Assembly: GCF_003018235.1 (NCBI RefSeq)
Contig: NZ_CP027437.1
DNA from: Escherichia coli
GTDB taxonomy: Bacteria > Pseudomonadota > Gammaproteobacteria > Enterobacterales > Enterobacteriaceae
Length of the DNA stretch: 64,000 nt
Strand: one strand, 5' to 3'
This document shows, one piece after another, positions 2,994 through 50,700 of the stretch. How positions within the stretch are numbered: position 1 is the stretch's first letter; every line of letters begins with the position of its first letter. The position numbers and the translations under genes are program-made. Below the pieces are notes generated by a model. The model saw only the letters and a program-made list of their open reading frames with translations. It did not search any database and had not been told where the DNA came from.

Positions 2994-3024
2994 AAAAAAA
3001 ACCCGCTGATTAAGCGGGTTTTGA
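2994..3024. terminator. Bidirectional terminator between convergent crcB and cspE
   Basis: aaaaaaa-acccgctgattaagcgggtt-ttg hairpin. Confidence 0.6.
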
Positions 3025-15460: not shown

Positions 15461-15495
15461 GCCCGCCAGGTAAGCCCACCTGGCGGGCTTTTTTA
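15461..15495 (+). terminator. Rho-independent terminator after citT
   Basis: gcccgccaggtaagcccacctggcgggc followed by ttttttat. Confidence 0.65.
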
Positions 15496-21518: not shown

Positions 21519-22421
21519 ATGGCGAATCTTTATGACCTAAAAAAATTTGATCTGAATTTACTGGTCATATTTGAGTGCATTTATCAACACCTCAGCATTA
21601 GCAAAGCAGCAGAATCATTATATATAACGCCCTCTGCTGTTAGTCAGTCGTTACAACGTTTACGCGCGCAATTTAATGACCCGTTATTCATCCGCTCAGG
21701 GAAAGGTATCGCGCCGACTACGACAGGGTTAAACCTGCATCACCATCTTGAGAAGAATCTCCGAGGCCTTGAACAAACGATCAATATTGTTAATAAGTCT
21801 GAGCTAAAGAAAAATTTTATTATCTACGGTCCTCAGCTTATTTCTTGTACTAATAACAACATGCTAATCTGCTGTCTTAGACAAGATACTTCAATCGATA
21901 TAGAATGCCATGACATACTGCTTTCAGCTGAAAATGCCGAAGAACTGTTGGTTCAACGCAAAACTGACCTGGCAATTACACTACAACCAGTAATTAGCCG
22001 CTCTGTCATCTGCATGCCGTTACATACTATTCGCAATTCTCTTATATGTAGCAATAAACATCCTCGTATTACCGATACCAGTAACTATGAACAAATTATC
22101 GCCGAAGAATTCACCTTGTTGATATCTAAATCAGCAGGGATTGACGAAATTCAAATGGACATAGATGAACGTTTTATGAACCGTAAAGTTTCATTTCGCA
22201 GTTCTTCTTTGTTGACGATAATTAATAGTATTTCTGTTACTGACTTATTGGGCATTGTGCCCACCGAACTGTACGATTTACATCGTGATTTTTTGAAGTT
22301 ACAAGAGATAAAACTGGAACGACCACTTCCTGCGGTTAAACTTTATATTTCCTATAACAAGGCTTCGTTGAACAACCTTGTCTTCTCACGATTCATAGAT
22401 CGTTTAAATGATAGCTTCTGA
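21519..22421 (+). CDS. ybdO: LysR-family transcriptional regulator YbdO
   Basis: Trimmed to MANLYDLKKFDLNLLVIFECIYQH... (300 aa); N-terminal LysR HTH; gene is conspicuously AT-rich. Confidence 0.85.
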   Translation: MANLYDLKKFDLNLLVIFECIYQHLSISKAAESLYITPSAVSQSLQRLRAQFNDPLFIRSGKGIAPTTTGLNLHHHLEKNLRGLEQTINIVNKSELKKNFIIYGPQLISCTNNNMLICCLRQDTSIDIECHDILLSAENAEELLVQRKTDLAITLQPVISRSVICMPLHTIRNSLICSNKHPRITDTSNYEQIIAEEFTLLISKSAGIDEIQMDIDERFMNRKVSFRSSSLLTIINSISVTDLLGIVPTELYDLHRDFLKLQEIKLERPLPAVKLYISYNKASLNNLVFSRFIDRLNDSF

Positions 22422-22567
22422 TTTATTACCACGGATAAATGTTATATTACGCATCAATTGATTCATTGTGTGAATATAAAATAATGTGCTCTATCTTGCT
22501 TCGTTTACCCTATAATTAACGGATTCATCTCACGAGTCACCCCGTAACGTTCAGAGAGCGTTTTCAG

Positions 22568-23788
22568 ATGTCTATTTATAAAATCCCGCTTCCACTGAAT
22601 ATTCTGGAAGCTGCAAAAGAACGTATTACCTGGACACTTAACACCCTACCCCGCGTCTGCGTTTCTTTTTCGGGTGGTAAAGATTCCGGATTAATGCTGC
22701 ATCTGACCGCCGAACTTGCCCGACAAATGGGCAAAAAAATTTGTGTTTTATTTATCGACTGGGAAGCTCAGTTCTCTTGCACCATTAACTATGTTCAGTC
22801 TCTGCGCGAGTTGTACACCGATGTCATCGAAGAGTTTTACTGGATTGCGCTCCCGCTTACAACGCAAAATTCCCTATCACAATACCAACCCGAATGGCAG
22901 TGCTGGGAACCTGATGTCGAATGGGTACGTCAGCCCCCGCAAGATGCGATAACCGATCCTGACTTTTTCTCCTTTTACCAGCCTGGCATGACCTTCGAAC
23001 AATTTGTGCGTGAGTTTGCCGAATGGTTTTCGCAAAAACGTCCGGCGGCGATGATGATCGGCATCCGTGCGGATGAGTCCTACAACCGTTTTGTCGCCAT
23101 CGCCAGTTTAAATAAACAACGTTTTGCCGATGATAAGCCCTGGACTACTGCCGCACCAGGCGGTCATAGCTGGTACATTTACCCCATCTACGACTGGAAA
23201 GTCGCTGATATCTGGACCTGGTATGCTAGCCATCAACGCCTCTGTAACCCACTGTATAATATAATGTATCAGGCAGGCGTTCCTCTACGTCATATGCGAA
23301 TTTGCGAACCTTTTGGTCCGGAACAACGGCAAGGATTATGGCTCTATCACGTTATCGAACCGGATCGCTGGGCTGCTATGTGCGCACGAGTCAGCGGGGT
23401 AAAAAGTGGCGGCATTTACGCCGGACATGACAACCATTTTTATGGTCATCGGAAAATCCTCAAGCCCGAACATTTAGACTGGCAGGAGTATGCATTATTG
23501 CTACTCAACAGCATGCCGGAGAAAACAGCTGAGCATTATCGCAATAAAATCGCCATTTATTTGCACTGGTATCAGAAAAAAGGCATCGAGGTTCCACAAA
23601 CCCAGCAAGGGGACATTGGCGCGAAAGATATCCCCTCCTGGCGGCGAATATGCAAAGTTTTACTCAATAACGATTACTGGTGTCGGGCATTATCATTTAG
23701 CCCGACCAAAGCGAAGAACTATCAGCGTTATAACGAACGAATAAAAGGAAAACGTCAGGAATGGGGGATACTATGCAACAACGATTAA
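22568..23788 (+). CDS. ybdN: PAPS-reductase-like (PP-loop ATP pyrophosphatase, DndC/IbrA-like) protein YbdN
   Basis: 406-aa ORF with PP-loop SGGKDS at residues 35-40. Confidence 0.88.
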   Translation: MSIYKIPLPLNILEAAKERITWTLNTLPRVCVSFSGGKDSGLMLHLTAELARQMGKKICVLFIDWEAQFSCTINYVQSLRELYTDVIEEFYWIALPLTTQNSLSQYQPEWQCWEPDVEWVRQPPQDAITDPDFFSFYQPGMTFEQFVREFAEWFSQKRPAAMMIGIRADESYNRFVAIASLNKQRFADDKPWTTAAPGGHSWYIYPIYDWKVADIWTWYASHQRLCNPLYNIMYQAGVPLRHMRICEPFGPEQRQGLWLYHVIEPDRWAAMCARVSGVKSGGIYAGHDNHFYGHRKILKPEHLDWQEYALLLLNSMPEKTAEHYRNKIAIYLHWYQKKGIEVPQTQQGDIGAKDIPSWRRICKVLLNNDYWCRALSFSPTKAKNYQRYNERIKGKRQEWGILCNND

Positions 23789-24390
23789 CGCAGGATTTAA
23801 CCCAATTTCTCGCCAGCTTGCCGGAAGACGATCGCATCAAAGCGATTAATGAAATCCGCATGGCGATCCATCAGGTTAGCCCCTTTCGAGAAGAGCCAGT
23901 GGATTGCGTTCTGTGGGTTAAAAACAGCCAACTTATGCCTAATGATTACAACCCAAACAACGTGGCACCACCCGAAAAAAAACTGCTGAAAAAATCCATT
24001 GAAATAGATGGTTTTACCCAACCCATTGTGGTCACGCATACGGATAAAAATGCCCTGGAAATCGTGGATGGTTTTCACCGCCATGAAATTGGTAAAGGCT
24101 CATCATCGTTAAAATTACGCTTAAAAGGTTATTTGCCGGTGACCTGTCTGGAAGGTACGCGTAATCAACGCATCGCCGCGACTATTCGTCATAACCGCGC
24201 TCGTGGACGTCACCAAATCACTGCCATGTCAGAAATCGTCCGTGAACTCAGCCAGTTGGGATGGGACGATAATAAAATTGGCAAAGAGCTGGGAATGGAC
24301 AGCGACGAAGTGCTACGCCTGAAGCAAATTAACGGCCTGCAAGAGTTGTTTGCCGACCGTCAATATTCCCGCGCCTGGACGGTTAAATAG
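23761..24390 (+). CDS. ybdM: ParB/sulfiredoxin-fold (DGQHR/DndB-like, IbrB-like) protein YbdM
   Basis: 209-aa ORF with a DGFHRH motif at residues 103-108; overlaps the ybdN 3' end by 28 nt. Confidence 0.85.
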   Translation: MGDTMQQRLTQDLTQFLASLPEDDRIKAINEIRMAIHQVSPFREEPVDCVLWVKNSQLMPNDYNPNNVAPPEKKLLKKSIEIDGFTQPIVVTHTDKNALEIVDGFHRHEIGKGSSSLKLRLKGYLPVTCLEGTRNQRIAATIRHNRARGRHQITAMSEIVRELSQLGWDDNKIGKELGMDSDEVLRLKQINGLQELFADRQYSRAWTVK

Positions 24391-25551
24391 CTAAAGCTGG
24401 CGCAGGCGTTCAGCTGCTGCCAGCAACGTCGATTCCTTCTTGGCAAAACAGAGACGAATCAGTTTATGTGGGAAGGGATCGGCGCAAAACACCGATAGCG
24501 GAATCGCCGCTACGCCGTGCTCCTGCGTCAGCCACTGGCAAAACTCAACGTCATCCAGGGTAGATACGGCGCTGTAATCCACCAGCAAAAAGTATGTACC
24601 TTCGCACGGTAAAATCTCCAGCCGGCTTTCATTTAAGGCATTCACCAGAATATCGCGCTTCTGGCGATAAAAGTCCGGTAACGCAAGATAATGCTCAGGT
24701 TCTGCACGTAGCATATCGGCAAGCGCCAGCTGTGCCGGGGTATTCACCGAAAAGGTCAGATACTGATGTACCTTGCGAATTTCGGCACTGATGGGCGCTG
24801 GCGCAACGCAATAACCCACTTTCCAGCCGGTCATATGATAGGTCTTGCCAAACGATGACACCGCCACCGCCCGCTCACGCAGCTGCGGATGCGCCTGCAC
24901 GCTGGCATGGCCCTGTTGTGAAAAGTTGATGTGCTCGTAAACTTCATCGCTAATGACAAAAATCTCGTGCCCGGCAATTGCCTGCCACAAAGCGGCGAAA
25001 TCAGCCTGCTGCCAGACAGTTGCACTGGGGTTATGCGGGGTGTTGAGGATCACCAGTCGGGTGCGCTCGCTTAACAATGCGGCAAATTCCTGCCAGTCCA
25101 CGCGAAAATGCGGTGGTTGCAGTGCAATACGTTTCACTATTCCCCCCGAAAGCGCGATGGCGGGCGCGTAACTGTCATAGCTGGGATCAAAGCAGATCAC
25201 TTCATCACCATTGCGCACCAATGCGGTAATCGCTGCATATAACGCTTCCGTCGCCCCTGCCGTTACGGTGATATCACTATCGGCATCCGGTTGATAGCCA
25301 TACAGACGTTCCGTTTTCTGAGCAATCGCCTCGCGCAAGGCCTGCACGCCAGTCATAGGCGCGTATTGGTTTGCCCCCTGGTCAACATGGTACGCCAGCC
25401 GCTCCTGCAAATAGCGCGGACCATCAAAATCAGGAAAGCCTTGCGAAAGGTTAATCGCCTGGTGTTGCTGCGCCAGCGCGCTCATCTGGGTGAAAATAGT
25501 GGTGCCAAGTTGTGGAAGTTTGCTTTGTGGAATCAGAGGGTTATTTGTCAT
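24391..25551 (-). CDS. ybdL: PLP-dependent methionine aminotransferase YbdL
   Basis: 386-aa ORF, class I/II aminotransferase, matches YbdL. Confidence 0.92.
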   Translation of the reverse strand: MTNNPLIPQSKLPQLGTTIFTQMSALAQQHQAINLSQGFPDFDGPRYLQERLAYHVDQGANQYAPMTGVQALREAIAQKTERLYGYQPDADSDITVTAGATEALYAAITALVRNGDEVICFDPSYDSYAPAIALSGGIVKRIALQPPHFRVDWQEFAALLSERTRLVILNTPHNPSATVWQQADFAALWQAIAGHEIFVISDEVYEHINFSQQGHASVQAHPQLRERAVAVSSFGKTYHMTGWKVGYCVAPAPISAEIRKVHQYLTFSVNTPAQLALADMLRAEPEHYLALPDFYRQKRDILVNALNESRLEILPCEGTYFLLVDYSAVSTLDDVEFCQWLTQEHGVAAIPLSVFCADPFPHKLIRLCFAKKESTLLAAAERLRQL

Positions 25552-25658
25552 TTTTTATTGTGCCTGACGAAGTTGTGTTGAAGGCACTATAACACGATGC
25601 TAGTATTTGGCGATCAAGACGTTTAGATGTCTAAATAAAACAATAAGGACAACACAAC

Positions 25659-26747
25659 ATGCCTCACAATCCTATCCGCGTGGTCGTCGGCCCGGCTAAC
25701 TACTTTTCACATCCCGGCAGTCTCAATCACCTGCACGATTTTTTCACTGATGAACAACTTTCTCGCGCGGTGTGGATCTACGGCGAACGCGCCATTGCTG
25801 CGGCGCAAACAAAACTTCCGCCAGCGTTTGAACTGCCAGGGGCAAAGCATATTTTGTTTCGCGGCCATTGCAGCGAAAGCGATGTACAACAACTGGCGGC
25901 TGAGTCCGGTGACGATCGCAGCGTGGTGATTGGCGTCGGCGGCGGCGCACTGCTCGACACCGCGAAAGCCCTCGCCCGCCGTCTCGGTCTGCCGTTTGTT
26001 GCCGTTCCGACGATCGCCGCCACCTGCGCCGCCTGGACACCGCTCTCCGTCTGGTATAACGATGCCGGACAGGCGCTGCATTATGAGATTTTCGACGACG
26101 CCAATTTTATGGTGCTGGTGGAGCCAGAGATTATCCTCAATGCGCCGCAAGAATATCTGCTGGCGGGGATCGGTGACACGCTGGCGAAATGGTATGAAGC
26201 GGTGGTGCTGGCCCCGCAACCAGAAACGTTGCCGCTAACCGTGCGACTGGGGATCAATAATGCGCAGGCCATTCGCGACGTCTTGTTAAACAGTAGCGAA
26301 CAGGCGCTTGCCGATCAGCAAAATCACCAGTTAACGCAATCATTTTGCGATGTGGTGGATGCGATTATCGCCGGAGGTGGAATGGTCGGTGGTCTGGGCG
26401 ATCGTTTTACGCGTGTGGCGGCGGCCCATGCCGTGCATAACGGTCTGACCGTGCTGCCGCAAACCGAGAAGTTTCTTCACGGCACCAAAGTCGCCTACGG
26501 AATTCTGGTGCAAAGCGCCTTGCTGGGTCAGGATGATGTGCTGGCGCAATTAACAGAGGCGTATCAGCGTTTTCATCTGCCGACTACGCTGGCGGAGCTG
26601 GAAGTGGATATCAATAATCAGGCGGAGATCGACAAAGTGATTGCCCACACCTTGCGCCCGGTGGAATCCATTCATTACCTGCCGGTCACGCTGACACCGG
26701 ATACGTTGCGTGCAGCGTTCGAAAAAGTGGAATCGTTTAAAGCCTGA
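25659..26747 (+). CDS. ybdH: Iron-containing alcohol/glycerol-dehydrogenase-family hydroxycarboxylate dehydrogenase
   Basis: 362-aa ORF, matches YbdH. Confidence 0.9.
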   Translation: MPHNPIRVVVGPANYFSHPGSLNHLHDFFTDEQLSRAVWIYGERAIAAAQTKLPPAFELPGAKHILFRGHCSESDVQQLAAESGDDRSVVIGVGGGALLDTAKALARRLGLPFVAVPTIAATCAAWTPLSVWYNDAGQALHYEIFDDANFMVLVEPEIILNAPQEYLLAGIGDTLAKWYEAVVLAPQPETLPLTVRLGINNAQAIRDVLLNSSEQALADQQNHQLTQSFCDVVDAIIAGGGMVGGLGDRFTRVAAAHAVHNGLTVLPQTEKFLHGTKVAYGILVQSALLGQDDVLAQLTEAYQRFHLPTTLAELEVDINNQAEIDKVIAHTLRPVESIHYLPVTLTPDTLRAAFEKVESFKA

Positions 26748-26756
26748 CGTACATAT

Positions 26757-26954
26757 TTAGCAGCAGCGCGCGCCGCCTTTTCCACCGTAGCGCGCGTCCT
26801 GCCGCTCACGGAAAAACTCCTCGTAGGTCATCGGCGTTTGATCGGGATGGTTAACCCGCATATGTTCGACATAGTTGTCGTAATCAGGCATACCAATCAT
26901 CAGTTTCGCCGCCTGACCTAAATATTTTCCGGCTTTTGCCAGTGAATCAAACAT
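26757..26954 (-). CDS. ybdD: Small protein YbdD (DUF466), cstA-associated
   Basis: 65-aa [35 protein letters not shown]... immediately downstream of cstA. Confidence 0.88.
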
Positions 26955-26973
26955 CTAAACCTCCGGTAATACA

Positions 26974-27000
26974 AATGCCCTCCTGAATTAAGAGGGCTTA
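26974..27000. terminator. Hairpin between convergent ybdH and ybdD
   Basis: gccctcctgaattaagagggc inverted repeat. Confidence 0.45.
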
Positions 27001-27066
27001 ATTGCTATCAACACGCTCGGGCTGAGAGTAAGGGGAACGCTCAGCACATCCCCCCTCACTCTGACT

Positions 27067-29039
27067 TTAGTGCGCGCCTTTCGCCTGCGCCACGATCTCT
27101 TCGACATTTTCCGGCATCGGCTCATATGGCGTTTCTTTCGCCGTTGGCTTCGGCTCTTTCAATGCCGCCAGTGCCGTCTTAATCGAGAACAGCGCCAGAA
27201 CCACCACGACCACCATAAAGAAGATGGTTAACCCGGCATCAAGACGGTTGTTGAATACCAGTTGCGCCAGCTGTGACTCAGTATACTGCGACGGAATATT
27301 GCCGCTGTCGATCATTGCCTGGAACTTATTAGCAATCGCCTGGAAGCCGACTTTCGCATCCGGGCTAAACGCTTTCTGCCAGCCTGCGGTCAGGGTACAA
27401 ATCAGCAGCCAGGCCGTTGGTACCAGCGCCACCCAGGCGTAACGTTGACGTTTCATTTTGAACAGCACCACAGCACAGAGCATCAGCGCCATCCCTGCCA
27501 GCATCTGGTTGGCAATACCAAACAGCGGCCACAAGGTGTTAATACCGCCCAGCGGATCGACCACACCCTGATGGAGGAAGTAGCCCCACGCCAGTACGCA
27601 CAGCGCCGTTGCCAGCAGGTTAGCAGGCAGTGAATCGGTCCGTTTCAGGCCCGGAGACACCACGCCCAGCAGATCCTGCAACATAAAGCGCGCAGCACGC
27701 GTACCTGCATCCACCGCCGTCAGAATAAACAGTGCTTCAAACAAAATGGCGAAGTGATACCAGAACGCCACATCCATCATGCCGCCCAGCGCGCCGTGCA
27801 GAATGTAGGCCATCCCCACCGCCAGCGTCGGCGCACCGCCCGCACGGGAAATGATCGACTGTTCACCCACTTCGCTGGCAATCTGGTTGAGCGTATCTGG
27901 TGTAATGCTAAATCCCCAGCTACTCACCACCTGCGCGGCAGAAGCAACCACATCCGCCGTACCTGCCGGAGCCAGCACCGCCATCGGGCTGTTCATAGCG
28001 AAGTACACACCCGGATCGATGATACAGGCGGAAACCAGCGCCATAATCGCTACGAAGGATTCCATTAACATCCCGCCGTAGCCGATAAAACACGCCTGCC
28101 CTTCGTTCGCCAGCATCTTCGGCGTGGTACCGGAAGAGATCAGCGCATGGAAGCCAGACACCGCGCCACAAGCGATGGTGATAAACAGGAACGGGAACAG
28201 GTTACCGGTCCATACCGGGCCTGTGCCATCGACAAATTTAGTTAGCGCAGGCATGGTCAGCGTCGGGCGCATAATCAAAATGCCTACCGCCAGACCGACG
28301 ATAGTCCCGATTTTCAGGAAGGTTGAGAGGTAGTCACGCGGAGCCAGCAGCAGCCACACCGGCAGCACCGCCGCCACAAAACCGTAACCCACCAGCATCC
28401 AGGTCAGCTGCACGCCGGTAAAGTCAAAGTACGGTGCCCAGGTCGGGCTTTCTGCCACCCAGCCGCCAGAGATAATGGCGAAAATCAGGAACACCAGACC
28501 AATCACCGACACTTCGCCAATACGCCCCGGACGCAGATAACGCAGGTAGATCCCCATAAACAGCGCCAGCGGAATGGTGAACGCAACGGTATACGTTCCC
28601 CACGGGCTATGGGTCAGGGCTTTCACCACGATCATCGCCAGCACGGCAAGGATAATGACCATGATCATAAAGCAGGCCACCAGCGCAATCACCCCGGCAG
28701 GTAACCCATTTGCGCCGCCAGCACCGGCCCCACCAGCGGGCCTGCTCCGGCAATGGCCGCAAAATGGTGACCGAACAGCACTTTTTTGTCCGTCGGCACA
28801 TAGTCCAGCCCGTCGTTATGGCGCACCGCTGGCGTCATACGCGTCGGGTCAACCGCCAGCACATTTTTGGCGATATACAGGCCATAAAAACGGTAAGCGA
28901 TCAGATAGATACAGACCGACGCCACCACAATCCACAGCGCGTTGATCTGTTCCCCACGATTTAAAGCAATGTATCCCAGAGCAAATGCTCCCATTACAGA
29001 GAGCACTGTCCAGACGAGGTATTTCCCTGATTTGTTCAT
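27067..29039 (-). pseudogene. cstA: Carbon-starvation peptide/pyruvate transporter CstA, interrupted by frameshift/internal deletion
   Basis: The CstA N-terminus (116 aa ending ...AAQMGYLPG) stops at a TGA at 28689-28691; the remainder (541 aa from VIALVACFMIMV...) resumes in another frame from 28692. The sum (657 aa) is about 44 aa short of the roughly 701 aa I recall for CstA. Confidence 0.7.
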
Positions 29040-35196: not shown

Positions 35197-36447
35197 TTAA
35201 CTGTCGGACGCTGTCACCTGCGGCGGCGTCTGGCGAAAACGCCGCAACTCCACCAGCACCAGCAATAACAATACGCCGATAATCAACAAACCAAAACCGC
35301 TTGCGCTTGCGGAAGCAACCGGTGTCATCATCGCGCCCAAACCGCCCAGCAGCGCCGCGCCTATGGCATCGCCCGTCACGTTTTGTGCCGTCCACAAACC
35401 GTTAATCCGCCCTAACATCGCTTCCGGGGTTTGCGTTTGCAGCATTGTATATTGCAGCAACGAACTAACCGCGCTCAGCCAGCCGAATAGCGCCAGACAA
35501 ATCACGCCTAAAATCCACATCGGCATCAGGCCAAACAGCCCAATGGCGAGGAACGATCCCAGCGTGGAGAGCAGCATCAATAACCCTGGTCGCGCGCTAT
35601 GTGCCAGCTTCCCGCTGGTTAACGCGCCAATAGCCGCGCCGAGCGGGATCGCCGCATAGAGAAAACCAATCTGTGCCGCCGACATCTGCCAGTTGTCAGC
35701 CAGCGCCGGATACAGTACCCGCACCGCACTCGCCATCGTCAATAAACCACCCAGCAGCGCAATCCCTCCCACCAGCGGGCTGGCGAGCAGAAAACGAAAT
35801 CCTGCCAGTAATGATTTCAACGGATGCTCACGCGGCTGCGGTGGCGGTGGCAACGCCGGAAGGCTTAATAACGGCAGCAAGGTAATAAACGTGCCCGCCG
35901 CCGCCAGCCCGTAGTTCCAGGCTACGCCGCCGGTCGCCAGCAATAAACCGCCAATCATAGGCGAAATCACCGACCCCAGACGCACGGTCAACATGGTGAT
36001 CGCCCCGGCCTGCATTAAGTTTTCACGCCCTACCAGTGCAGGTGTCGCCGCCAGTAGCGCCGTAACGCCAAGCGATGCGAAAAAACCATCCCATAAACCG
36101 AGTAAATAGATTGCCAATAGAGATGGCTCCGGCAGCAGCGCGTTCAGGCACAGTCCAATGAAGCCAATGCCACAGGTGCCGCGCGCCAGCAAAATCACTT
36201 TTTTGCGCTCATAGCGATCCGCCAGCACACCGCCGACCATCAGGCCAACAAACATCGCGCCGCCGGTCAGCGTCACCGAAAGCCCCACCTGCCAGGTAGA
36301 ATGCGTCATCATCTGGATCTGCACTGGTACCGCGACGCCGAGCAAACCCAGAGACACAATTGAGATAAAACGAGCGAGGAATACTGCGCGAAACGCCGGG
36401 TGCGTTTTCAACAGGCTGAGGTTAAGCAGCCAGGATTGTTTATTCAT
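35197..36447 (-). CDS. entS: Enterobactin exporter EntS (MFS)
   Basis: 416-aa 12-TM MFS ORF, matches EntS/YbdA. Confidence 0.93.
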
Positions 36448-39363: not shown

Positions 39364-40493
39364 ACTAAGTGGTCTGCTATCATGGCATCCTGTTTTCTGG
39401 ATGCCATCGCATAGCGCAACAGCACGCCACCACAAGCCACCATCCCGCCGATCATCGCAGAAAGGATCACAATAATCGCCTTACCCGGACCGTCTTTTTT
39501 CACTGGCAATGACGGGCTTAACTGATATTTAAACGGCGTAAAATTCACATCGTTGATATTTGCTTTTGTTAACTGCTCAACAAGATACTGACGATTACGT
39601 AATTCACCGTTCAGTTCCGCAACGTTAGTAACCGCTTTTTCAATTTCCAGTTTGCGTTCAATACCGTCTGCGCCGAGAGAAATAGAGAAATCGGGGTCAT
39701 CTTTAACGGCCTGACCATTACTGTAAACGGGCTTTTTAATTCCTGCCGCGTTGGCAATGTCGAGTGAATAATTGAGGCGCTGAATGTTTGCATCAAGTTG
39801 ATTTTTCGTTTTAATGCGATCCTGAGCCAGTTTTTCTTTTTCAAACTGGGTTTTGATCTCCAGTTTATTACGGACGTTTTCTATCGACTCTTTCACCACC
39901 AACGCAGAGATATAATCGATATACCCGCTCAAAACGGTCTGCGCCTCTTCACTGGTTGGCGCGGTAAAACTTAGCGTCCAGGAGTTATACAGTGACGGTT
40001 CATCTTTTTTCTTACTGGCATTGTCATCAACCGCTTTCATTTTTTCGCTCAATGCGACAATTGCGCGATGCAAATCCAGCTCGTCGATTTTCGCCTCTTT
40101 TAATTGGTCCATCACATAAGGTGTTGAGCGCAGGTACTCTTCCAGCAAGCTAACCGACTGAAACTTCTTGATAAACAGGTTAAATGCTTCTGTACGATCA
40201 ATTTTGATATCCAGATCCAGCACACGAAGCTTAGTGAATGTTTTCTCAAGCGCCTGCCACTGAACAGGTTCTGGAGGCGTGACAACCGCCGCGCTGGTCC
40301 ATTTTTGCGGCAGGATGAAAGAGATCAGTAAACCTGCGCAGGCAAACGCAAAAACGACCGCCATGACCGTTTTTTTGGCCCGCCATAAAACTTCGATTAG
40401 ATTAAGTAAATCAATTTCATTATTACTGGGCGACGCCAGAGGATACTCGGGAAAATGAGTGTCACTTCCCTGTTTAATATTCAGTGATGACAT
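39360..40493 (-). CDS. fepE: Polysaccharide co-polymerase (O-antigen very-long chain length regulator) FepE
   Basis: Trimmed to MSSLNIKQGSDTHFPEYPLASP... (377 aa). Confidence 0.9.
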   Translation of the reverse strand: MSSLNIKQGSDTHFPEYPLASPSNNEIDLLNLIEVLWRAKKTVMAVVFAFACAGLLISFILPQKWTSAAVVTPPEPVQWQALEKTFTKLRVLDLDIKIDRTEAFNLFIKKFQSVSLLEEYLRSTPYVMDQLKEAKIDELDLHRAIVALSEKMKAVDDNASKKKDEPSLYNSWTLSFTAPTSEEAQTVLSGYIDYISALVVKESIENVRNKLEIKTQFEKEKLAQDRIKTKNQLDANIQRLNYSLDIANAAGIKKPVYSNGQAVKDDPDFSISLGADGIERKLEIEKAVTNVAELNGELRNRQYLVEQLTKANINDVNFTPFKYQLSPSLPVKKDGPGKAIIVILSAMIGGMVACGGVLLRYAMASRKQDAMIADHLV

Positions 40494-49590: not shown

Positions 49591-49624
49591 GTTTATATTG
49601 CCTCCATGCGAAGAAGGGACTACC

Positions 49625-49692
49625 ATCCGAGTTGTTGAGGTTCGGAGTGGCAGCCCCAGGATTGATAGAAATATCTCCTGGGGCTTCATCTT
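49625..49692 (+). ncRNA. Putative Sok-like antisense RNA, copy 1 (boundaries approximate)
   Basis: Plus-strand hairpin gccccagg-N16-cctggggc followed by ttcatcttt, antisense to the mok initiation region. Confidence 0.3.
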
Positions 49693-49940
49693 TCCAGATC
49701 TCAGAGTTAACCTGAAACCGGAAAGCTTCAGGCACCCGCAGCTATCTTACCTTTCCTCAACAAAATAGCTGTTTATTTATACAGCAAATCCTGTTTCGGA
49801 CTTCTGTTGGCAAAACTGATCATTGCCCTTAAAACGACATCGCCCGCAGCCATTGCTGACCGCGGGCGAAAGTGTAAAACAGGTGCCTTACCACCCTGAC
49901 CTGACAACCGGATATGCGGGGATTGCTCCCCGCACAACGG

Positions 49941-50093
49941 CTACTTCTTCGGTTCGTAAGCGAGAACAGCCCTGAACTCAATATTACGTTCGTTCACCGT
50001 AAACTCACACAGCGAGTCTCCGACCAGAAGCGTAAATCCCAGCACCGTTAAACACAGCACTATGACTGCCACAAGGGCATATTTCGTCAGCAT
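49941..50093 (-). CDS. Hok-family membrane toxin, copy 2 (Mok extension from the ATG at 50129)
   Basis: 50-aa [50 protein letters not shown]. Confidence 0.8.
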
Positions 50094-50127
50094 GTTTATA
50101 TTGCCTCCATGCGAAGAAGGGACTACC

Positions 50128-50196
50128 ATCCAAATTGTTCAGGTTTGGGTAGGTAGCCCCAGGGTTGATAGAAATATCGTCCTGGGGCTTCATCTT
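50128..50196 (+). ncRNA. Putative Sok-like antisense RNA, copy 2 (boundaries approximate)
   Basis: Conserved gccccagg...cctggggc hairpin plus U-tract. Confidence 0.3.
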
Positions 50197-50444
50197 TCCA
50201 GACCTCAGAGTTAACCTGAAACCGGAAAGCTTCAGGCACCCGCTGTTATCTTACCCTTCCTCAGCAAAATAGCTGTTTATTTATACAGTGAATCCTGTTT
50301 CGGACTTCTGTTGGCAAAACTGATCATTGCCCTTAAAACGACATCGCCCGCAGCCATTGCTGACCGCGGGCGAAAGTGTAAAACAGGTGCCTTACCACCC
50401 TGACCTGACAACCGGATATGCGGGGATTACTCCCCGCACAACGG

Positions 50445-50597
50445 CTACTTCTTCGGTTCGTAAGCGAGAACAGCCTTAAACTCAATATTACGTTCCTTCA
50501 CCGTAAACTCACACAGCGAGTCTCCGACCAGAAGCGTAAATCCCAGTACCGTCAAACACAGCACTATGACTGCCACAAGGGCATATTTCGTCAGCAT
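50445..50597 (-). CDS. hokE: Hok-family membrane toxin, copy 3 (matches the HokE sequence as I recall it; Mok extension from the ATG at 50633)
   Basis: 50-aa [50 protein letters not shown]. Confidence 0.8.
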
Positions 50598-50631
50598 GTT
50601 TATATTGCCTCCATGCGAAGAAGGGACTACC

Positions 50632-50700
50632 ATCCAAATTGTCTGGTTTGGAGTGGCAGCCCCAGGGTTGATAGAAATATCTCCTGGGGCTTCATCTTTC
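50632..50700 (+). ncRNA. Putative Sok-like antisense RNA, copy 3 (boundaries approximate)
   Basis: Conserved gccccagg...cctggggc hairpin plus U-tract. Confidence 0.3.

Follow-up and report, generated by a model that had tools for sequence, protein, structure and literature searches.

How are two mRNAs ended when no intergenic DNA separates their genes? The convergent genes ybdM and ybdL of Escherichia coli offer a worked example within the stretch analyzed here (64,000 nt of contig NZ_CP027437.1, assembly GCF_003018235.1; hereafter the window), in which one U-tract is built from two stop codons and a stem-loop conserved across 11 genera sits inside the neighbor's open reading frame. The zero-gap arrangement itself is real, ordinary and already known. 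It is present in every RefSeq annotation and the overlap of the transcripts is in a published catalogue, so that the abutment matters little alone. What is new here is the conservation of the zero gap across species, the embedded hairpins, a terminator-like site on the ybdL strand and the lack of a U-tract on the ybdM strand.

Anatomy and conservation of the junction

The ORF list places the TAG stop of ybdM at 24388-24390 and the stop of ybdL, read as CTA on the + strand, at 24391-24393, and direct reading of the + strand from 24380 to 24400 gives cggttaaaTAGCTAaagctg. The coding sequences do not overlap, the last base of ybdM being 24390 and ybdL occupying the strand from 24391 onward (Table 1). 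The convergent orientation and zero spacing described in the initial annotation are exact in the sequence, the ORF list and RefSeq, whose boundaries agree for two further E. coli lineages as well as for Ecol_316, the identical strain. K-12 derivatives have the same sequence over the 100 nt spanning the junction, which falls at 633970|633971 in the K-12-type record NZ_CP084895.2. A merely apparent abutment, produced by a false stop or a pseudogene, is refuted by the alignments and has practically no probability left; no argument for such an artifact was found. In all species examined, the alignments of both proteins run to the last residue and an in-frame stop comes next. The YbdM alignment extends to residue 209 with an immediate stop in all 46 species carrying ybdM, and its C-terminal codons (TGGAC.GT.AA.TA.) are nearly invariant. 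YbdL has the 386-residue length of the crystallized protein (PDB 1U08) and matches chain 1U08_A in full (1-386), and the agreement of RefSeq in three lineages likewise argues against an artifact. In the Pfam comparisons, ybdM scores 24.6 bits with ParB_N, just under the 26.3-bit cut-off, and ybdL matches Aminotran_1_2 with E=1e-59. The upstream gene ybdN overlaps ybdM by 28 nt.

Table 1. Coordinates of the genes and sequence elements around the ybdM/ybdL junction (window positions)
Feature	Position	Strand	Basis
ybdN, PAPS-reductase-like + DUF3440, upstream gene of the ybdNM operon	22568..23788	+	ORF list, RefSeq, Pfam
ybdM CDS, 209 aa, IbrB-like / ParB_N-like	23761..24390	+	ORF list, RefSeq, Pfam
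C-rich, G-poor stretch, candidate Rho-utilization region	24233..24350	-	composition scan; rut assignment putative
Stem-loop AUUGACGGUCGGCAAACAACUCUUGCAGGCCGUUAAU, -16.1 kcal/mol, ybdL 3' region	24328..24364	-	folding, species comparison
U-rich tail UUUAGCUAUUU, immediately 3' of the - strand hairpin	24385..24395	-	discriminant score
Junction, abutting stops, palindrome TAGCTA	24388..24393		sequence; 0-nt gap
ybdL CDS, 386 aa, methionine-oxo-acid transaminase	24391..25551	-	ORF list, RefSeq, Pfam, PDB 1U08
Inverted repeat, last ten ybdL codons, GCUGGCAGCAGCUGAACGCCUGCGCCAGC on the - strand, -15.8 kcal/mol	24396..24424		folding
Moderately C>G stretch in antisense ybdL, weaker candidate Rho-utilization region	24491..24688	+	composition scan; putative
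Promoter-like site and tandem MetJ-box-like sequence, ybdL	25586..25632	-	promoter scan, pattern search

Eleven convergent junctions are annotated in the window, and at four of them the gap is at most 9 nt (fepE/fepC -4, ybdL/ybdM 0, entS/fepB 3 and ybdD/hcxA 9 nt), the other seven being 40, 53, 80, 100, 119, 120 and 192 nt. This distribution makes the zero gap a member of a common tight tail-to-tail class, and the abutment of ybdM and ybdL is not more than chance. Extreme tail-to-tail packing is shared with the type in which the stop codons overlap by 4 nt, as fepE/fepC do in the window. However, ybdM and ybdL abut and have no nucleotide in common.

Comparison of 46 Enterobacteriaceae species representatives carrying ybdM, from 11 genera, showed the 0-nt gap in 44, despite variation in both stop codons. 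The exceptions are two Citrobacter with a 13-nt insert between the stops, and the spacing itself is therefore non-essential. The persistence of the zero gap across genera would be due mainly to the lack of neutral DNA that could collect indels. Genomes carry the ybdNM module either whole or not at all, which, like the tolerated insert, favors the view of the zero gap as a frozen accident of the way in which ybdNM came to adjoin ybdL. In 14 of the 34 representatives without the module, the gene facing ybdL is dsbG or citR-like. The idea that a species without ybdNM always has a proper terminator for ybdL in the intergenic DNA was rejected; only 10 of the 34, mainly Kosakonia and Mangrovibacter, have one, and the contrast is weak.

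Hairpins in the 3' region of ybdL

On the ybdL strand, the hairpin 24424..24396 is followed by a tail composed of the end of a Leu codon, both stop codons and the antisense of the last ybdM Lys codon. Hairpin and UUUAGCUAUUU together have a discriminant of d=+5.0, a measure that is inflated at junctions because two stop codons bring unavoidable T/A richness; none of 300 random coding windows reaches this value (median -46, 99th percentile -5.7). This G+C-rich stem-loop with its U-tract thus has, marginally, the form of an intrinsic terminator, and may provide ybdL with a weak intrinsic-terminator-like site. A built-in scan for terminators, run over 22000-27000 with perfect stems and 5 or more T in 8 required, returned none at the junction and fewer matches than in shuffled sequence. 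The site is not conserved, positive scores (d>0) being limited to 6 of 49 sequences, although by our count 24 of the 49 orthologous junctions lie above the 95th percentile of the null. Escherichia keeps the hairpin, but most other genera have a weak one or none. Even in E. coli the site is probably leaky, because the ribosome finishing ybdL would cover the hairpin.

The second stem-loop (24364..24328) lies 27-63 nt further on, antisense to ybdM codons ~190-201, and is followed by UUUGCUU. Its significance bears on a reading that we consider doubtful, namely that the locus holds no dedicated 3'-end elements, that the transcripts end by diffuse Rho-dependent termination or decay, and that the hairpins are incidental to conserved amino acids and their GC-rich Ala/Leu/Arg codons. 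Chance folding of this kind fits poorly with the presence of a hairpin of -15 kcal/mol or lower within the first 40 nt past the ybdL stop in 35 of 46 species vs. 3.3% of matched controls (the median energy 3' of the stop is -17.1 kcal/mol across species). In 37 of 46 species it is also the ybdL strand that folds into the more stable stem-loop, G-U pairs strengthening the stem specifically there. Ten representatives, mostly Kluyvera and Pseudocitrobacter, have lost the primary stem, and they carry a hairpin of similar stability in a different register, again unexpected of a by-product. Pairing is found in 80.7% of cells vs. 22-52% with the partner slid, and the wobble base of Ile190 follows whether residue 201 is Q or R, which keeps the pairing (CG 18, UA 18). 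However, the covariation of 0.150 is no better than that of the slid control (0.187 at slide -3), so the conservation of the stem-loop could reflect conserved YbdM residues (I-N-G-L ... A-D-R). The same incidental reading is favored by the RNAalifold analysis of 45 orthologous junctions, in which the consensus folds of the two strands reached no more than -1.5 and -6.6 kcal/mol, with essentially no covariation, by the poor conservation of the junction hairpin outside Escherichia, and by the other tight junctions of the window, where embedded hairpins are not general (those of fepC/fepE and fepB/entS are only weak). Rfam covariance models over 22000-27200 gave 0 matches at E<=1.

The opposite reading, a selected dual-coding 3'-end module, appears very unlikely. 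The stem-loops would then be deliberately encoded in the last ybdL codons and in ybdM codons ~190-201, constraining synonymous sites of YbdM and even Q/R201, and would have been kept throughout the history of the ybdNM-bearing Enterobacteriaceae. Their product would be a defined antisense RNA of ~65 nt over the ybdM 3' end, through which MetJ-controlled transcription of ybdL would tune the CitR-repressed ybdNM. If such RNA-level selection on the stem-loop were true, the locus would show cleanly, in nature, a coding region constrained by its neighbor's 3' end and would be a convenient place to study the regulatory effect of 'excludon' overlaps.

The ybdM strand and candidate Rho-dependent ends

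On the + strand, the inverted repeat folds into a hairpin of -17.2 kcal/mol starting 6 nt after the ybdM stop, an energy that 0 of 150 antisense-of-gene control windows reach. Within ~80 nt of the stop, no stem-loop with a U-tract was found (best d=-27.5), and the corresponding sites of the other species are similar (median d -31.8, d>0 in 3 of 46). The earlier claim that the abutting stops leave no room for a terminator is thus half right. It holds for the ybdM strand, which is without an intrinsic-terminator-like site, and fails as stated for the ybdL strand, because terminator parts can sit in coding sequence, as do the embedded hairpin with its U-rich tail and the stem-loop 24364..24328.

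Bidirectional intrinsic terminators between convergent genes, with collision-assisted termination, were reportedly described by Ju et al. in 2019. The boundary of ybdL and ybdM resembles them in having a single inverted repeat that can fold in both transcripts. However, it has a U-rich flank on one side only and is without A-tract/U-tract symmetry (d=+5.0 vs. -27.5), so that no bidirectional intrinsic terminator is present at the junction, and the element is part of coding DNA, not of an intergenic spacer. True bidirectional terminators in the window, among them those at 1325-1342 (d 34 and 32), 3002-3018 and 15461-15488, score far higher.

A closer likeness is to the Rho-dependent 3' ends described by Dar & Sorek (NAR 2018, PMC6061677), which have a stable stem-loop without a U-tract and a rut site just downstream. 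This architecture is found on both strands. The stem-loop 24364..24328 lacks a proper U-tract and is followed on the ybdL strand by a C-rich, G-poor stretch (+41..+158 after the ybdL stop) with C/G up to 2.08 and up to 17 YC dimers per 78 nt. The + strand hairpin 24396..24424 is followed by sequence with C/G of 1.3-1.6, and the weaker candidate region (+101..+298 after the ybdM stop) has C/G of 1.25-1.57. Unlike the ends described by Dar & Sorek, the stem-loops and candidate rut sites of ybdL and ybdM lie wholly inside the coding sequence of the convergent neighbor. Judged from base composition, the 3' ends of both genes are candidates for Rho dependence. The supplements of Adams 2021 and SMRT-Cappable-seq hold no entry for the 3' ends of ybdL, ybdM or ybdN.

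Taken together, the reading that we favor, and consider somewhat probable, is that both mRNAs are ended by leaky intrinsic and Rho-dependent termination inside the partner gene, and that ybdNM (+) and ybdL (-) are independently regulated convergent units whose stops happen to touch and whose overlap has little regulatory weight. The 3'-end-forming elements of both mRNAs would lie inside coding DNA because there is no spacer. A fraction of the ybdL mRNA would end at the weak intrinsic-type site formed by its own last-ten-codon hairpin and UUUAGCUAUUU. The remaining ybdL transcripts would extend 30-150 nt into antisense ybdM, past the stem-loop 24364..24328, where Rho most likely terminates them in the C-rich, G-poor stretch; exonucleases would then trim the RNA back to the stem-loop. 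The ybdM RNA would most likely have a Rho-dependent end 100-300 nt inside antisense ybdL, with the 24396..24424 hairpin as its putative 3' protective structure.

Transcript overlap and regulation of the two units

Without a spacer, whatever either mRNA carries beyond its stop codon is antisense to the other gene. Consistent with this, the suggestion of the initial annotation that the transcripts run into each other's antisense is borne out by published RNA-seq of MG1655. The pair ybdL-ybdM, whose genes have the convergent orientation that ExcludonFinder requires, is listed in Table 1 of that work (Sanmartin et al., NAR 2025, PMC12288877), which catalogues 165 convergent MG1655 pairs whose transcript boundaries in strand-specific RNA-seq overlap in at least 50% of 58 samples. 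Two more pairs of the window, entS-fepB and ybdD-hcxA, appear in the same table. The excludon pairs have short intergenic distances, and 146 of the 165 have predicted terminators inside the neighbor's transcription unit (PMC12288877). The paper gives no detail on ybdL-ybdM, its zero gap or its embedded stem-loops.

Membership in this catalogue, the syntenic arrangement with its widely kept zero gap, and the contribution of head-on collisions to termination at convergent pairs, as stated by Wang et al. (bioRxiv 10.1101/2022.10.23.513370), are in line with the mutual interference raised in the initial annotation, a functional excludon in which selection would favor the antisense overlap for its regulatory effect and ybdL and ybdNM would repress each other through polymerase collision or cleavage of the duplex by RNase III. 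The excludon concept implies mutually exclusive expression, whereas only coverage overlap is reported for ybdL-ybdM; this overlap is the sole criterion of ExcludonFinder, and dsRNA validation of convergent pairs was not feasible. Mutual repression is unlikely in view of the published expression data from Salmonella, the citR deletion and the yneJ deletion, none of which shows reciprocal behavior of ybdL and ybdM. In Salmonella, ybdL and ybdM rise together. Deletion of citR strongly derepresses ybdNM, yet ybdL is absent from the main-text DEG table (PMC9068703), and deletion of yneJ induces ybdL 12-fold, with ybdM and ybdN absent from the differential lists.

Returning to the independent units favored above, ybdNM is an operon repressed by CitR (PMC9068703), and the low expression of ybdN is seen in its row value of 36, apparently mean counts, in the DEG table of the same study. 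Collisions between ybdL and ybdNM transcription should be rare because ybdNM, normally CitR-repressed, is expressed at a low level, and interference would be correspondingly low. The ybdL gene probably follows the methionine (MetJ) regulon. It is co-induced with met/cys genes, and the promoter scan found a promoter-like site (TCGCCA-16-TATAGT with TG, 25613..25586) with the tandem MetJ-box-like sequence AGACGTTTAGATGTCT just upstream, at 25617-25632. With two mismatches allowed, this is the sole match to the MetJ-box-like pattern in the window; one match or more arose in 12 of 100 shuffles.

Structure and conservation of the ybdM/ybdL junction

The stop codons of ybdM and ybdL abut directly (24377-24400, ...ACGGTTAAATAG followed by CTAAAGCTGGCG...) and together form the palindrome TAGCTA, with a spacer of 0 and no shared bases. 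RefSeq places the boundaries of both genes identically in Ecol_316, HT-947 and EDL933, and the 386 aa of YbdL equal the crystallised chain 1U08_A, which rules out an annotation artefact as the source of the abutment. The zero spacing described in the initial annotation is exact by sequence, by open reading frames and by RefSeq in the three strains. At its other end, ybdM shares 28 nt (23761-23788) with the upstream, same-strand gene ybdN (22568..23788), in agreement with RefSeq. Codon 5 of ybdM is an internal Met, and a start there would leave an overlap of only 16 nt.

Features at the ybdM/ybdL junction and convergent junctions of the window (RefSeq gaps)
Feature	Position	Strand or orientation	Description
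ybdM ORF	23761..24390	+	209 aa; stop TAG at 24388-24390
ybdL ORF	24391..25551	-	386 aa; stop TAG, complement of CTA, 24391-24393
Hairpin of the junction inverted repeat	24396..24424	+	-17.2 kcal/mol; begins 6 nt past ybdM stop
Downstream stem-loop	24364..24328	-	-16.1 kcal/mol; 27-63 nt past ybdL stop; antisense to ybdM codons ~190-201
fepE/fepC	39562-39565	convergent	gap -4 nt (4-nt overlap)
ybdL/ybdM		convergent	gap 0 nt
entS/fepB	35396-35398	convergent	gap 3 nt
ybdD/hcxA	26748-26756	convergent	gap 9 nt
Seven remaining junctions		convergent	gaps 40, 53, 80, 100, 119, 120, 192 nt

Of the 11 convergent junctions that RefSeq annotates across the whole window, four have a gap below 10 nt. The zero gap is an ordinary genomic feature and not unusual. 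The fepC/fepE and fepB/entS junctions have weak hairpins only, and the 3' side of hcxA carries a hairpin of -18.1 kcal/mol (26763..26802) within ybdD.

The region 23700-25600 is present in 5405 of 5426 complete E. coli genomes. The best matches are Ecol_316, at 100% identity, and an ST69 strain. Identity to most E. coli genomes is only ~96.5%, reaching at least 99% in just 285 records, indicating that the window represents a minority lineage. A 100-nt segment with the junction at its centre is nevertheless 100% identical in K-12 derivatives, with no length change in the 24 full-length matches listed (of 5313 genomes).

A YbdL search of genome contigs gave 80 species representatives, 46 of which have ybdN-ybdM convergent to ybdL (Escherichia, Salmonella, Citrobacter, Enterobacter, Klebsiella, Raoultella, Kluyvera, Pseudocitrobacter, Superficieibacter, Lelliottia and Huaxiibacter; lowest YbdM identity, 59%). 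Of these 46, 44 have a gap of exactly 0 despite changing stop codons (TAG, TAA or TGA for ybdL, TAG or TAA for ybdM, in six combinations), indicating that the abutment is old and stable. This constancy across genera is mildly new. The sole departures are 13-nt inserts between the stops in two Citrobacter. The insert, TGACG(T/C)GATTTCG, lies precisely between the stops in Citrobacter sp. Cu233 and C. youngae CCUG 30791 (L016:5162-5174, L048:5162-5174). Stable abutment is the neutral expectation, since there is no spacer that could take indels without harm to a C-terminus or a stop; the harmless change is an insertion exactly between the stops, and that kind did occur.

The remaining 34 representatives lack ybdNM. 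In the 14 of these with an identified neighbour, ybdL lies opposite dsbG or a citR-like gene, and in Kosakonia the ybdL-dsbG gap is ~30 nt with a hairpin terminator. The distribution suggests that the ybdN-ybdM module was inserted or deleted at exactly this boundary. Beside the ybdL 3' end the module is all-or-none (loci L008-L014, L026, L029, L033, L036, L055, L075, L077); where it is missing, the neighbour is dsbG in Kosakonia and Pluralibacter, and a citR-like LysR gene in species such as Klebsiella indica and Raoultella terrigena.

Terminator-like elements on the two strands

The built-in terminator scan found none at the junction. A bulge-allowing scan of both strands of the window, scored by the d'Aubenton-Carafa discriminant (d, for a hairpin with a U-rich tail), ranked obvious intergenic terminators at the top and showed one positive site at the junction, on the ybdL strand (d = +5.0). 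The last ten ybdL codons form a hairpin of -15.8 kcal/mol (GCUGGCAGCAGCUGAACGCCUGCGCCAGC, 24424..24396), directly followed 3' by UUUAGCUAUUU (24395..24385), in which the last bases of the Leu386 codon precede the ybdL stop and then the complements of the ybdM stop and last Lys codon. Such a U-tract built from two stop codons is mildly new, and the T/A-rich stops partly raise the tail score. None of 300 random 19-nt windows from 19 genes of the window scored as high (median -46, 99th percentile -5.7). Among 49 orthologous sequences, d is positive in only six and above the null 95th percentile in 24, and the putative site is weak across orthologues. It would be leaky at best because a terminating ribosome would cover the hairpin.

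The downstream stem-loop lies within ybdM. Of the 46 species, 35 have a single hairpin of -15 kcal/mol or below that starts 0-40 nt after the ybdL stop (median -17.1). Among matched control windows antisense to genes, 3.3% have one (median -9.3). Owing to G-U pairs, the hairpin is more stable on the ybdL strand than in the ybdM sense in 37 of 46 (medians -17.1 vs. -12.7). The main stem is gone in ten representatives, mostly of Kluyvera and Pseudocitrobacter, which form an equally stable hairpin in a different register instead. Pairing is kept in 80.7% of alignment cells, compared with 22-52% for slid partners, and one stem pair, which joins codon Q/R201 to the wobble base of Ile190, alternates between C-G (18 sequences) and U-A (18). 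RNA-level selection is only suggested, because the covariation score for the whole stem-loop (0.150) does not exceed that of the -3 slide control (0.187) and RNAalifold did not pick the downstream helix. A conserved ybdL 3' stem-loop lying in ybdM is mildly new. Directly past it, the ybdL transcript is C-rich and G-poor (C/G up to 2.08 at +61..+138). With this rut-like composition past the stem-loop, the region has the layout that Dar & Sorek (PMC6061677) give for Rho-dependent 3' ends, in which a stem-loop without a good U-tract precedes a rut region.

On the ybdM strand, the inverted repeat in the last ten ybdL codons (24396..24424) forms a hairpin matched in stability by none of 150 control windows (0/150), and folding of the 120-nt region gives z = -4.6. 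No U-tract follows it (best d = -27.5), and only three of 46 species have a positive site within 70 nt of the ybdM stop. The hairpin is kept in Escherichia and mostly not elsewhere (-15 kcal/mol or below in 7/46). Further downstream, the transcript shows a moderate C excess (C/G 1.25-1.57 at +101..+298). Given a hairpin without a U-tract and this C>G stretch, the ybdNM transcript would most likely terminate Rho-dependently within antisense ybdL. The earlier statement that the junction leaves no room for a terminator takes no account of elements that lie in coding DNA, such as the candidate site and the conserved stem-loop of the ybdL strand; the ybdM strand alone lacks an intrinsic-terminator-like site.

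Searches for experimental 3' ends of ybdL and ybdM found none, with no entry in the supplements searched (Adams 2021 and SMRT-Cappable-seq), and Rfam gave no match over 22000-27200. Elsewhere in the window, almost identical strong hairpins are repeated at ~49600-50700 (such as 49869..49840 and 50373..50344, both -25.3 kcal/mol; also 49653-49684, 50156-50188 and 50659-50690), where the annotation has duplicated hokE loci beside an IS421 transposase.

Transcript overlap and regulation

The ybdL-ybdM pair is already catalogued by ExcludonFinder (NAR 2025, PMC12288877) among 165 MG1655 convergent pairs with transcripts, as delimited by RNA-seq, that overlap in 50% or more of 58 samples. The same study lists entS-fepB and ybdD-hcxA, finds short intergenic distances typical of such pairs, places predicted terminators inside the neighbour's transcription unit in 146 of the 165, and did not achieve validation of dsRNA formation at convergent pairs. 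The MG1655 overlap applies to the window because the 100-nt junction is identical in K-12 derivatives, and the initial annotation was right that each transcript enters the antisense of its partner.

Mutual interference had also been raised as a possibility. CitR (YbdO) is the repressor of the ybdNM operon. In the main-text table for the citR deletion (PMC9068703), the entry for ybdN gives 1.86E-22, 36 and 5.5, which appear to be adjusted p, mean count and log2 fold change, and ybdL is absent. Induction of ybdL in a yneJ mutant (12-fold; log2FC 3.60, mean 233) accompanies that of met and cys genes, and the differential-expression supplements searched list neither ybdM nor ybdN. In Salmonella, ybdL and ybdM rise together, the opposite of mutual exclusion, and with an unstranded library the ybdM signal could even come from read-through of ybdL. 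Strong mutual interference is unsupported by these data, none of which is a designed test.

The promoter scan showed a promoter-like site for ybdL. A tandem MetJ-box-like sequence, AGACGTTTAGATGTCT (25617-25632), occurs in the promoter region between the divergent genes ybdL and hcxA. It differs from two consensus boxes by two mismatches and has no second match in the window. Such a site agrees with published data in which ybdL and ybdH (hcxA) are induced alongside met genes.
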